64,000 nt of DNA, taken from a virus (taxonomy: Duplodnaviria; Caudoviricetes). Of this stretch, positions 35,579 to 60,847 are shown piece after piece (position 1 is the first letter of the stretch; the number at the start of each line of letters is the position of its first letter). A program made the position numbers and the translations under genes. The stretch is taken from positions 256,001 through 320,000 of the IMG/VR virus record IMGVR_UViG_3300025715_000009; one strand, 5' to 3'. The notes under the pieces are model-generated. The model did not search any database. It saw only the letters and a program-made list of their open reading frames with translations, and was not told the origin of the DNA.

Positions 35579-35929
35579 TTATCTTGTATATTTTAATGCT
35601 TTATGTAATAATAAATCATGGTCATATTTATCTTTTATATAAACATGACCATTTTTATATGAGAGAGTATAAAGTTTTTTAAAATATTTGGAAGTAATAC
35701 GAAGAATTATTGTTTCAAGTTTTATTTTTTCAATATTACAAAGTTTCTGTATTTTAACCTTTGTTTTTAACTTATATTTAAAACTTGATTGAATTTCTTT
35801 TTTACTTAATAATATAACACTGCCATCTAAAGTAAAAACATTTCCATTATGGGTATATAATCTATTATTAGCATCTCTTGCAACAATTGCATAAACATAC
35901 CCATTACAAATTGACCTAATCTACTTCAT
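35579..35929 (-). CDS. 116-codon gene with in-frame TAG at codon 3 (readthrough candidate or pseudogene)
   Basis: AAGGAGAGTAGT-ATG AAG TAG ATT AGG... then 113 sense codons to TAA; fills the gap between neighbours exactly. Confidence 0.6.
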
Positions 35930-35930
35930 A

Positions 35931-36155
35931 CTACTCTCCTTTAATTACTGTTAATGATTTATATCCGTCAGTTATAATATAATGATTCACTTGAGCCCAT
36001 TCTTTTAATAGCCACCCACTTATATCATCAAAAGTTCCCCATACATTACCTGTTCTATCTAATTCATTTTTAAATCTATTAAAGTATTCTTGTTTCACTA
36101 TATTGTCTATTTTTTGATAATCTTCAAAAACATAAAAATCATCATAGTGTCCCAC
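35931..36155 (-). CDS. hypothetical protein
   Basis: GGAGGT plus GTG start at 36155. Confidence 0.6.
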   Translation of the reverse strand: MGHYDDFYVFEDYQKIDNIVKQEYFNRFKNELDRTGNVWGTFDDISGWLLKEWAQVNHYIITDGYKSLTVIKGE

Positions 36156-36573
36156 AATTATACCTCCATAATGTTGGTCTAACTCTATTATACCAAGAAC
36201 TATCTTCTCTTTCATCATTATCAACATAGGATAAAGCTTGTTTATATCCCCAAGAAATAGATTGGTCAGAAAATATAATACCATCTTTTTTAGCTAGATT
36301 AATTCCTATATGCCAACATTCTAATTCAATTATTAATGTATTATAATTCCATTCTTTAATAAATTCTTGAGTTATACGACAATGACCTAATTCATGAAAA
36401 AATGAAATTAACATTTTTTCTTCATCATCATAATCTCCAAGCCAAATTTCATCATTACCTATAACCCAAGAATGATTTTTTTTGTCCCAATCATCATGAT
36501 TTTTATCAATAAAAGTGATAATAATATTATATTTTTCTGCTAATTCTAAAATCTTTTCTTTTGCCCTATTCAT
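36142..36573 (-). CDS. HExxH-containing protein (possible metallopeptidase)
   Basis: FFHELGH...ELECW. Confidence 0.55.
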   Translation of the reverse strand: MNRAKEKILELAEKYNIIITFIDKNHDDWDKKNHSWVIGNDEIWLGDYDDEEKMLISFFHELGHCRITQEFIKEWNYNTLIIELECWHIGINLAKKDGIIFSDQSISWGYKQALSYVDNDEREDSSWYNRVRPTLWRYNCGTL

Positions 36574-37024
36574 AATCTTCAGGGTTAAAAACTGTAGAAA
36601 CTTCAACGTTTGGCAATTCGCCTGATTCTGTTTTCTTTATTAAATCATCAATTATTTTAAGTGTTCTTTTTGTTTGATATAATTCGCTTATTGGACGTTT
36701 AATATCAACCAACTCCATAGCAATAATATCCCCTAAAATACCAAGCCAAATTTCTTTTGTAAATGGTCCATCAAGACAATCGTTTCCTCGATGCCAATCT
36801 TCTCCAGCTCGTGGTTTTCTACTTGTCATTGTGCACCCTAAATAACCTTCATAACCATCGTGAGGTGGTTTAGCAGTAATTGAATAATGATTTATGTCTG
36901 TAAATAATGACATTTTAACACAATCATCATCAACATAAATACAATCATTAAATTCGTATTTATGTCTCCTCACTGTCTCTAAAAACCATTGATATAATTT
37001 GTCCGCGCATTCTTGTAGGTTCAT
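36566..37024 (-). CDS. hypothetical protein
   Basis: SD GGAGG before MNLQE. Confidence 0.7.
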   Translation of the reverse strand: MNLQECADKLYQWFLETVRRHKYEFNDCIYVDDDCVKMSLFTDINHYSITAKPPHDGYEGYLGCTMTSRKPRAGEDWHRGNDCLDGPFTKEIWLGILGDIIAMELVDIKRPISELYQTKRTLKIIDDLIKKTESGELPNVEVSTVFNPEDYE

Positions 37025-37077
37025 AACAAACCCTCCTTGAGGATAAAATAACAAGCCATAACAACTTGTTTTAATAA

Positions 37078-37259
37078 TCGGGAGGCGAGGATTTGAACCT
37101 CGCTCTTTCTACATTCACACTTTAATCATGATTTACTGCAGTAATCATGCTGTCTGAAACTTGCTGTCCACCTCCGCGTTGGCTTTCAGTATTGTCAGAC
37201 TCGAAATGTAGTTGTGCTATTCAGCTCTAAGGCTGGCCTTTTTCCCTACACTACCCCCG
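37078..37259 (-). ncRNA. expanded tRNA-like RNA
   Basis: CGGGGG/CTCCCG-A acceptor, GCGAGG-TTCAAAT-CCTCGC T arm, 89-nt insert in place of the anticodon loop, enlarged D loop. Confidence 0.6.
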
Positions 37260-37264
37260 TAGTG

Positions 37265-37335
37265 TGCCCCATTTGGGAATCGAACCCAAGTAAATAGTTT
37301 TAGAGACTACCGCTTTACCATTAAGCAAATGGAGC
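37265..37335 (-). tRNA. tRNA-Sup (CTA), amber suppressor
   Basis: full cloverleaf; GTAGT-CT CTA AA-ACTAT. Confidence 0.85.
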
Positions 37336-37371: not shown

Positions 37372-38049
37372 TTAGACCTTGAAAGTTTGCCTCATTTCAT
37401 AATTATCCCAACGTTTACCAGCATAATGTTTAATATCTGTCATACTATGTGGAAGAAAACCAGATTCTGAATTATTTTCTTCAAATTGATATTCAGACAT
37501 TAATGGAATTAAAATCCTACCATTATATAATGACATCCATGCAACGCAATCGTCTAAAAGTTCATTGCTTCCTAATTCACAATATCCAAATAAGTCTTGG
37601 ACTTCCAATTTTCCCTCAGATATTTTAGATAAATCAATTGCTTCTAATTTCCATCCTCCACTATCATCTCCCCAAACACATCCAGCAACAATAGCCAAGT
37701 TTGCTATTTTAGAATTTGGGTCTAATTTAGACTCATCCCAATAATCATAATCATTAGGAACACTAAAATCTACTGGACAGAAACCAGAGTTATGTTCAGC
37801 TATTAACTGACAATCTGGCAAAGACATTAAACTCACTGTTTCATAATCATGAGAATATAAAGCATATTCTTTCTCTTTCCATTTAAATGGATAAAATGTA
37901 TTATACATTGAATGATAATTTCTTGTATATTCGCCTATTTTAATTCCATCTTTTAGTATTTCAACTAATAAAGAATTACAATATCCATGACCATTACTTA
38001 TATCTGATGTTTTGGTTGTATAGTTTTTTAGTCTTTTCATTCTAGCCAC
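37372..38049 (-). CDS. hypothetical phage protein
   Basis: GFCPVDF, GCVWGDD motifs. Confidence 0.75.
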   Translation of the reverse strand: MARMKRLKNYTTKTSDISNGHGYCNSLLVEILKDGIKIGEYTRNYHSMYNTFYPFKWKEKEYALYSHDYETVSLMSLPDCQLIAEHNSGFCPVDFSVPNDYDYWDESKLDPNSKIANLAIVAGCVWGDDSGGWKLEAIDLSKISEGKLEVQDLFGYCELGSNELLDDCVAWMSLYNGRILIPLMSEYQFEENNSESGFLPHSMTDIKHYAGKRWDNYEMRQTFKV

Positions 38050-38405
38050 TCCTTTCCATTCTCTTTTAACATGTATTTTACTGAAATATACGCATGTTTT
38101 CTTTCTTCAGTTTTTACTTCATCATCGCTGACTTTTGGTTCAATTTGAGAAATTGTTTTGCCTCTTAGCATTGAATTATAAATATGCTGAATTCTGAAAG
38201 AAGATTTCAAGGATTGGATTGTATTTCTAGTAGAATTGATTCTTTGTAAGATGGGGGAAATTGTAAAATGATATTTTTCTGGTTGTGCATAACACGTATT
38301 TCGTGTATATACTTCATCTAAAACTAATTTGGATAATTCTCTTTGTGCTTCTTTATGTTGTTGTTTTGTAGATTTGATAAGATTTGCAATTTCATTATTT
38401 TCCAT
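38037..38405 (-). CDS. hypothetical phage protein (HIYxSMLRGK..QIE)
   Basis: ORF with SD GGAG. Confidence 0.75.
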   Translation of the reverse strand: MENNEIANLIKSTKQQHKEAQRELSKLVLDEVYTRNTCYAQPEKYHFTISPILQRINSTRNTIQSLKSSFRIQHIYNSMLRGKTISQIEPKVSDDEVKTEERKHAYISVKYMLKENGKEWLE

Positions 38406-38455: not shown

Positions 38456-38482
38456 TTATGGTGGTTTTAAAATCTATGACAT
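38456..38482 (-). promoter_or_regulatory. leader minigene MS(TAG)ILKPP-stop
   Basis: AAGGAGAGAGT-ATG TCA TAG ATT TTA AAA CCA CCA TAA. Confidence 0.5.
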
Positions 38483-42348: not shown

Positions 42349-43174
42349 GGGCTGAGACTATACCCTTCTCGCTATCACTTTCAAGCCCGTACCTTTGAGG
42401 TGCTACCCTCTCCGTTAAGCTCTTATCCACATCCTCATGGATGTCTGATAGCATGGCTGCCTTTTTTAGAGAGTGGCTTTTCTCTCGTCACAACAAGTTA
42501 ATCAACCTTCCGGTTACCGTCTACCTTGCGAGCAGTAAAGGACCGCTAAGTCCACCGTGCACCTTCCCATCAAACCCTTCCGCCTTGCGAGCTTCCAGGC
42601 TCCAGATTCTCTTTCGAGTCTGGACTTAAGCCATTTTCGCTTGTTGTCGGTCAAGACTTTTGCGTTTTCAATTGTTGGACTCGAACCAACGACCGATTGT
42701 ATTACAAGACAATTGCTCTACCATTGAGCAAAACTGAACGGGTTTCCCCTTGACCACGAGGTGCTTGACCAGTTGCTCCATATCCTTTTGAGATACGGAA
42801 TACAACACCTCGCATACATTTTACCTGCCGGCTACTTTGTGGTTTTTCAAGACCAGGTATTCCCCTGAATCTATCAAACTGCTATTAAGCACTTGTCTGC
42901 AAAGACTCGCACCTAATAACTACTGTTCTCTCTCATAGATAATCAGTTTTGCATGAAGATAATCCCTTGCGAGGAAAAGTTACTCTCACCCGGTTGGCCC
43001 TGAATAACTCTGTCTCTTCCTGATGTCTCTACAAATTCCGCTGGTAGCGAAATCATAGGAGAGTCAGCTTGCTTACATGAACTGTATTACTACAGCGGGA
43101 GGCGTCACCCTTTACCCCTTTATGATTATTGCTAATCACTATTCTTCGCCTTTCGGCAGGACCATAAGCAGCCC
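42349..43174 (-). ncRNA. GOLLD-like giant structured RNA (~826 nt)
   Basis: GC-richer region without credible ORF; 5' GGGCTG pairs with 3' CAGCCC; many GNRA hairpins; embedded tRNA; size and tRNA-cluster context fit GOLLD. Confidence 0.75.
42666..42738 (-). tRNA. tRNA embedded in GOLLD-like RNA, 8-nt anticodon loop (CU UGUA AU)
   Basis: TTCAGTT/AATTGAA acceptor; ATTGT-CTTGTAAT-ACAAT; GTTGG-TTCGAGT-CCAAC. Confidence 0.7.
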
Positions 43175-45972: not shown

Positions 45973-46046
45973 TGTCGGCGATGGGATTTGAACCCATAGG
46001 TCTTGGACTCTGAAACCAAGAAGTCTGCCAATTCCTTCACGCCGAC
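45973..46046 (-). tRNA. tRNA-Leu (CAG), short variable loop
   Basis: cloverleaf; TTCAGAG loop. Confidence 0.75.
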
Positions 46047-60526: not shown

Positions 60527-60577
60527 ATGTGCAACCCTAGAGTCGCTAGGCGTCTCTTTATTGGGTCGCAAGCGTCT

Positions 60578-60650
60578 TGGCTCCCATGGGATTCGAACCC
60601 ATACTGTACACATTTTAAGTGTGCCGCCTCTGCCATTGGGCTACGGAGCC
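60578..60650 (-). tRNA. tRNA-Leu (TAA), short variable loop
   Basis: cloverleaf; CTTAAAA. Confidence 0.85.
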
Positions 60651-60847
60651 ATAAAATTGGGCTCCAGACTAAGGTTGCCCTACCTAGATATATCTAATAT
60701 AGTATCAAGCAGGAGTTTCCTATACCAAGTCTGGTTGATATAGGACGCGCTCTTTAATCTTTATAGAGGGAAAGAGCACCGCTTATGCCTGCAGCTCTTC
60801 AGCATCGACCCTCTTACTCAAATAATTTCACAAATATAAAGTTCTAA

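Follow-up and report, generated by a model that had tools for sequence, protein, structure and literature searches.

Bacteriophages that use genetic code 15, crAss-like and Lak phages among them, translate TAG as glutamine (Gln): a phage-encoded tRNA with the anticodon CUA [tRNA(CUA)] reads UAG in a host that keeps the standard code, and the regulation of a subset of genes has been proposed as its role (10.1101/2021.08.26.457843; PMC9523058). Standard-code relatives that carry suppressor tRNAs have been discussed as a step towards such recoding (10.1101/2021.08.26.457843). The subject of this report is a 64,000-nucleotide stretch of viral DNA (the window; Duplodnaviria, Caudoviricetes), positions 256,001 to 320,000 of the IMG/VR record IMGVR_UViG_3300025715_000009, in which a tRNA(CUA) lies close to a gene with TAG as its third codon. 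The whole record comprises 388,268 bp with a GC content of 29.7%; coordinates refer to the window unless they are given as genome positions. This gene, referred to below as the gated gene, and a short leader with the same kind of start lead us to propose, with a probability of roughly 0.6, a gene-specific gate that would be opened by the phage suppressor tRNA, as distinct from genome-wide recoding. Suppressor-conditional, gene-specific expression was also the conclusion of the original prediction made for this stretch, and sequence and comparative evidence both support it: the motif-bearing gene is unique in the genome and its design recurs beside tRNA(CUA) in unrelated phages that use the standard code.

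The locus departs from the code-15 phages in several respects. In the latter, tens of genes contain many scattered in-frame TAGs and TAG has been abandoned as a terminator, whereas here one gene and one leader contain a single TAG each, at codon 3 of a fixed SD-ATG-NNN-TAG-ATT arrangement (SD, Shine-Dalgarno box), 73 genes end in TAG, and the tRNA has G1-C72 and A73 in place of the Gln-like U1-A72. The prfB gene, encoding release factor 2 (RF2), is comparable in that an early in-frame stop (UGA) sets termination against alternative decoding; prfB relies on a +1 frameshift and senses the release-factor level, whereas here the frame runs straight through and the competitor would be a dedicated tRNA. 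Laboratory amber suppression (supE and supF, or switches built on an orthogonal tRNA(CUA)) likewise makes a gene suppressor-conditional by means of an early UAG, and there, too, a purine at position +4 favours suppression, a change from C to A raising it about tenfold for supE (PMC6266110). Those systems are man-made or laboratory-selected; the arrangement described here is natural, phage-encoded and recurrent in many uncultured phages. Minigenes of the lambda bar type consist of a strong SD, a two-codon open reading frame (ORF) and a stop, which is also the format of the start of the gated gene, and the short peptidyl-tRNAs that drop off are rescued by peptidyl-tRNA hydrolase (Pth; PMC2490762). 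They differ in that the stop here is always TAG, has a tRNA(CUA) as its partner and is followed in frame by a conserved protein.

On the minus strand the gated gene starts with AAAGGAGAG-TAGT-ATG AAG TAG ATT, the ATG occupying 35929-35927, the TAG 35923-35921, the ATT 35920-35918 and the terminal TAA 35581-35579. It shares a strand with the tRNA and begins 1,335 nucleotides (nt) further downstream. The original prediction had described a gap about 1.3 kb downstream of the tRNA that is filled by an SD, ATG AAG TAG and 113 sense codons (35929-35579), and coordinates, ORF and codon score agree with this description. None of the 113 sense codons after the TAG is ATG, GTG or TTG, and a product of 116 amino acids (aa) would result if the UAG were decoded. 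The SD lies 4-6 nt before the ATG, and 13 nt separate it from the ATT; since its spacing suits the former and not the latter, it was counted as evidence for initiation at ATG 35929. A codon model trained on the long genes of the phage gives the gated frame +27 bits and the other five frames negative scores, and the gene map has 54 gaps of 200 nt or more, none of which apart from this one is occupied by a start-less, coding-like frame. The preceding gene also ends in TAG; were that stop suppressed, its frame would run on through four sense codons, a second TAG and three more codons to a TAA.

The genome was scanned for starts with an SD followed by a stop within eight codons and then by at least 50 coding-like codons. 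With TAG as the stop, the gated gene was the only true case, the three other matches being ordinary genes with an SD and start of their own after the stop; TGA gave no match and TAA a single weak one. The check put forward with the original prediction, a search for long ORFs preceded by SD-ATG-NNN-TAG, likewise leads to this gene only, plus the matching leader beside the same tRNA. A strong SD with ATG NNN TAG ATT occurs at just two sites in 388 kb, the gated gene and the leader. Both lie on the strand of the tRNA and within 1.4 kb of it, flanking it, and the chance of finding the two so close under random placement is, as a rough estimate, ~1e-5. The leader, MS*ILKPP*, is located 1,147 nt upstream of tRNA(CUA) and 50 nt before a gene for a 122-aa protein (38037-38405), and the SD box AAAGGAGAG is common to its start at 38482 and to the gated gene. 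The early-amber lock format, SD-ATG-N(3-9)-TAG-ATT, comprises a strong SD-ATG, a TAG at codons 3-5 with a purine at +4 (mostly as ATT) and, after it, either a long ORF or a KPP-stop leader. At 35929 and at 38482 alike, this format is combined with a same-strand tRNA(CUA) within a few kilobases. Similar leaders of the form M-x-*-[IVM]-(x)-K-(x)-P-P-stop adjoin tRNA(CUA) in other phage loci (L010, L045, L061/L093 and L068).

Two other routes past the stop were rejected. Frameshifting from the upstream gene would lead into a frame interrupted by a TAA eight codons ahead of the TAG, and the TAG itself would be met whatever the shift; a hop of the T4 gene 60 type from the AAG finds no in-frame AAG landing site with an open continuation. 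RNA structure around the start of the gated gene did not go beyond that of shuffled sequences (z = +1.3), and a blastn search of the region against cultured phages returned no match.

The tRNA that the original prediction had described as canonical is recovered as such by ARAGORN (37264-37335 on the minus strand, anticodon CTA), by Rfam family RF00005 (65.1 bits, where the gathering score is 29, covering model positions 1-71 of 71) and by its minimum free-energy fold, which is a cloverleaf. The anticodon, at 37303-37301, lies in a seven-nucleotide loop (CUCUAAA) with U33 and a purine at position 37; the acceptor stem opens with G1-C72, C2-G71 and U3-G70, the discriminator base is A73 and CCA is not encoded. 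ARAGORN labels the gene tRNA-Pyl. This assignment was discarded, as the label reflects nothing but the anticodon. A tRNA-Pyl would have a shortened D-loop that lacks G18G19, a 3-nt variable loop and a 6-bp anticodon stem, whereas this molecule is built like an ordinary elongator tRNA: its D-loop (AAUGGUA) contains GG, the variable region measures 4-5 nt, the anticodon stem has 5 bp and the T-loop (UUCGAUU) is standard.

The nearest relative of this tRNA (78%) is the tRNA(CUA) of two other loci that bear the lock (L061/L093), and G1-C72, C2-G71 and A73 are common to it and to 47 distinct tRNAs found beside the 188-aa family described below. Loci that are truly recoded for TAG (L021, L054, L078, L089, L095 and L097) have a Gln-like tRNA(CUA) that starts with U1-A72. 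The tRNAs of the gated loci are thus a class apart from these, and Gln cannot be assumed to be the residue inserted at the UAG; by analogy with the code-15 phages it is our guess for that residue, even though the acceptor stem is not Gln-like. Searched by itself, the tRNA most resembles genes for tRNA-Trp and tRNA-Cys in other phages (~80% across 70% of its length), a similarity that does not decide its identity.

The genome as a whole is not recoded. The standard code is in use, and in a simple gene map of the genome TAG is the rarest stop (13%), terminating 73 of 559 genes. ORFs of at least 100 aa cover 81% of the sequence in code 11 and 85% if either TAG or TGA is translated; the gain from reading TAG is about 3 points and equals that from reading TGA. 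The premise of the original prediction that TAG is otherwise a normal stop here is borne out by these figures. Of the two signs of code 15, a clear rise in coding density with TAG as sense is not seen, a single gap being filled, and TAG has not been dropped as a terminator.

When IMG/VR was scanned with a pattern for sequences resembling tRNA(CUA), 117 loci were obtained, 95 of which were confirmed by ARAGORN. Within these 95, SD-ATG-NNN-TAG occurs 29 times on the strand of the tRNA, against 15 occurrences each with TAA and TGA; when ATT follows the stop, the counts are 14 for TAG, 0 for TAA and 1 for TGA. Opposite-strand counts for TAG, TAA and TGA are 7, 9 and 3. The matches include KPP-stop leaders, a PTH2-like gene and an unrelated, conserved 188-aa family. 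The PTH2-like gene, in locus L061, bears the same lock (PF01981, 25.5 bits against a cut-off of 23). The 188-aa family, which starts IEFACKD..VFHFNKKHLED.. and has no Pfam match, was collected from 80 IMG/VR loci (L119-L198) spanning 57-100% protein identity. All 80 have a TAG directly before the conserved I-E-F, at codon 3 in 47 loci and, with few exceptions, at codon 4 or 5 in the others. ATT follows it in 73 of the 80, the codons ATC, ATA, ATG, GTT or GTA also being found after the early TAG elsewhere, and 63 of the loci have a same-strand tRNA(CUA) no more than 3 kb upstream. Retention of TAG in every locus over this range of identity shows that the stop itself is under selection.

Searches of the present genome with the PTH2-like and 188-aa families (tblastn) found nothing near tRNA(CUA), the 188-aa family being absent from this phage, and the cargo here is a different, previously unseen family of 116 aa, neither PTH2-like nor belonging to the 188-aa group. 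We would give even odds to the broader proposal that large phages with the standard code run a private lock, in which a handful of genes with a UAG at codon 3-5, set in a fixed context that favours suppression, would be translated only while the phage's own tRNA(CUA), not of the Gln type, is active, and that this lock has been extended to the 116-aa family and is conserved across it.

Relatives of the gated protein comprise three close and 14 representative sequences, all of them unannotated metagenomic proteins. Four lineages begin with M-x-Q (MKQIR, MSQIKR, MLQIKR and MSQTQ) and the others start 6-20 residues further in. The M-x-Q forms are found only on Logan/ENA contigs of 589-1,263 bp, and both JGI relatives, on contigs of 2,095 bp and 27,222 bp, start further downstream. 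The 188-aa family provides a calibration for this pattern. Its full-length database entries, all from short contigs, show Q in 65 of 65 cases, against TAG in each of the 80 DNA loci; 54 entries begin instead at the first potential start codon (ATG, GTG or TTG) beyond the stop, and these shortened entries include all 14 that are JGI-sourced and every contig longer than 6 kb. The early-TAG genes are represented in the database entries (P0007-P0126) either as Q read-through, on short Logan/ENA/NCBI contigs, or as shortened forms. A database Q at residue 3 is therefore uninformative and may hide a stop codon, and a 97%-identical homologue (P0002, starting MKQIRS) was dropped as proof of a sense Gln codon in a sister strain after this calibration. 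As far as protein entries can tell, the split between M-x-Q and shortened forms in the family of the gated protein fits a conserved TAG. Scans of IMG/VR, metagenome and genome contigs returned no DNA of true relatives of the gated gene; two candidates (L199 and L200) were false positives inside a larger gene, and a 113-codon ORF in L112 is not homologous to it.

Residues 9-19 of the gated protein (NGYVYAIVARD) are conserved among its homologues, and an AlphaFold2 model from 17 sequences, with a predicted local distance difference test (pLDDT) score of 78, has a confident strand at residues 13-18; the single-sequence model (pLDDT 38) was unusable. A protein that started where the shortened forms do would lose part of this fold, which places the start of translation at the TAG or close to it. 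The model predicts a small α/β protein. Sequence searches gave nothing above the Pfam threshold, no PHROG match and, for P0002, no usable ESM Atlas match; Foldseek found no fold match in the PDB at E <= 0.001, and the best Z score of a wide search was 3.7.

These features suggest the following course of events. The SD would direct ribosomes to ATG 35929, where fMet-Lys would be made before UAG is reached at codon 3. In cells that lack the phage tRNA(CUA), release factor 1 (RF1) or drop-off of the peptidyl-tRNA would end translation after these two residues, and the 113-codon body, with no canonical start of its own, would not be made. Once tRNA(CUA) has accumulated and has been charged by a host synthetase, it would decode the UAG and the 116-aa protein would be produced, with the A at +4 (UAG-AUU) probably helping the decoding. 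The leader MS*ILKPP* would use the same lock, so that the set tied to the suppressor would consist of one protein gene and one leader-controlled gene, TAG remaining a stop elsewhere. The purpose might be one of timing, or a check on the phage's own translation apparatus; the tRNA might also serve as a private key that keeps the genes silent in cells without it. Drop-off of short peptidyl-tRNAs and the resulting need for Pth may explain both the early position of the stop and the frequency of PTH2-like cargo elsewhere.

Several observations weigh against a suppressor-operated gate. Searches of the phage genome found no release factor and no synthetase of the families PF00749, PF00579, PF00152 and PF00133 (Glu/Gln, Trp/Tyr, Asp/Asn/Lys and Ile/Leu/Val types), so the charging of tRNA(CUA) would fall to a host enzyme. 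An active suppressor should, in addition, extend the products of the 73 phage genes with a terminal TAG; a comparison of TAG-terminated with TAA- and TGA-terminated genes showed no clear difference in the +4 base or in the distance to the next in-frame stop, and hence no protective adaptation of the TAG-ended genes is visible. The phage's own PTH2 (L118; genome 67842-68222, minus strand; PF01981, 111 bits) has a plain SD-ATG-GTA-AAA start with no early stop, so that the cargo here is unlike the commonest form of the design. The case for a gate at this locus is one of sequence and comparison, and conservation of the TAG within the gated gene's own family was judged from protein entries; should codon 3 be CAG in relatives, the TAG could be a recent nonsense change.

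Such a change, by recent mutation or strain polymorphism from a sense codon such as CAG, would make the gated gene a pseudogene or a case of incidental rescue. It would require a single transition, and protein-database homologues do have Q at residue 3; the 188-aa family shows, however, that a TAG in the DNA appears as Q in the database, and the family of the gated protein repeats the same division between M-x-Q on short Logan/ENA contigs and shortened JGI forms. A random amber at codon 3 that is followed by ATT, falls within 1.4 kb of the tRNA and echoes the leader motif would also be a very unlikely event, and we see only a slim chance for this explanation. Translation might alternatively begin at the AUU, with ATG-AAG-TAG acting as a two-codon mini-ORF from which ribosomes re-initiate to give low, suppressor-free expression. 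AUU is a rare start codon in bacteria, used for example in infC; the gated frame has no other start, and ATT stands directly after the TAG here and in most of the other cases. Initiation at AUU does not account for the choice of TAG over TAA or TGA in all 80 loci of the 188-aa family, nor for the same-strand upstream tRNA(CUA) in 63 of them; the codons that replace ATT elsewhere fit a need for a +4 purine or for an aliphatic residue better than they fit a start at AUU, and the SD is 13 nt away. We consider this unlikely.

A toxic minigene of the bar type would have the same strong SD, two sense codons and stop, and would act by shedding dipeptidyl-tRNA that loads the host peptidyl-tRNA hydrolase, the downstream ORF being secondary. 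Drop-off and rescue by Pth are established (PMC2490762), and the lock is found on PTH2-like genes in other phages, yet any stop would serve such a minigene, whereas TAG is invariant and tied to tRNA(CUA), and the body that follows it is a conserved, foldable protein; on balance the explanation is improbable. It is more improbable still that the locus records an early stage of genome-wide recoding to code 15, in which a first in-frame TAG has arisen by drift. The low GC content and the rarity of TAG among the stops are preconditions proposed for that process (10.1101/2021.08.26.457843), but drift predicts random sites, whereas both TAGs stand at codon 3 of one motif beside the tRNA. The early TAG is moreover invariant in other phages across 57-100% protein identity, and the tRNA is not of the Gln-like type of the recoded loci. 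A gate opened by the suppressor tRNA remains our preferred interpretation; the features of the locus are collected in Table 1.

Table 1. Positions in the window of the features of the tRNA(CUA) locus.
Feature	Position	Strand	Basis or remark
tRNA, anticodon CUA (amber suppressor type)	37265..37335	-	Rfam, ARAGORN, fold
Gated gene, ATG AAG TAG ATT + 112 sense codons + TAA	35579..35929	-	Sequence, ORF, codon score
Shine-Dalgarno AGGAGAG	35934..35940	-	Sequence; box AAAGGAGAG
TAG stop of preceding gene	35931..35933	-	1 nt before ATG of gated gene; sequence
Leader ATG TCA TAG ATT TTA AAA CCA CCA TAA (MS*ILKPP*), nine codons	38456..38482	-	Sequence, motif scan
182-nt tRNA-like RNA	37078..37259	-	Directly 3' of tRNA(CUA); sequence

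The 182-nt RNA that adjoins tRNA(CUA) has an acceptor-like stem, a good T arm and large inserts; it is neither called by ARAGORN nor matched in Rfam. At the equivalent position a tandem pair of tRNA(CUA) genes is present in several other phage loci, and a link between this RNA and the suppressor system is possible. Between the tRNA and the gated gene, 36142-36606 on the minus strand encodes a small HExxH protein similar to the PHROG 87 metallo-protease (E = 3.7e-7).

The genome contains 59 tRNA genes. Its Leu-anticodon tRNAs are all 74-81 nt in length (window 45973-46046; genome 336811-336886, 357012-357087, 358496-358572 and 360244-360405) and are therefore without the long variable arm expected of a bacterial tRNA-Leu. 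At 60577-60651 on the minus strand ARAGORN reports a tRNA-Phe with the unusual anticodon AAA; read one base earlier, the loop CUUAAAA would give UAA (Leu, codon UUA). A GOLLD RNA (RF02032, 183 bits) is located at 42349-42813 on the minus strand with an embedded tRNA (42666-42738), which has an eight-nucleotide anticodon loop and whose anticodon is read by ARAGORN as 'tgta'.

No account of an early-UAG lock, or of a natural gene switch of this kind, came up in a full-text search of the literature, although one may exist. The arrangement appears to be a gene-specific, motif-defined form of phage stop-codon reassignment that involves a tRNA not of the Gln type and a new cargo family. If the proposal is correct, standard gene callers miss or shorten genes of this design, and the Q printed in protein databases hides the stop. 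The natural pairs of tRNA(CUA) and codon context, apparently selected for efficient decoding at codon 3, would then be of interest for genetic-code expansion. Suppressor tRNAs in phages with the standard code would then be working parts of a gene-specific switch, rather than mere precursors of recoding, raising the testable question of what has to stay silent in large phages before their own set of tRNAs is at work.

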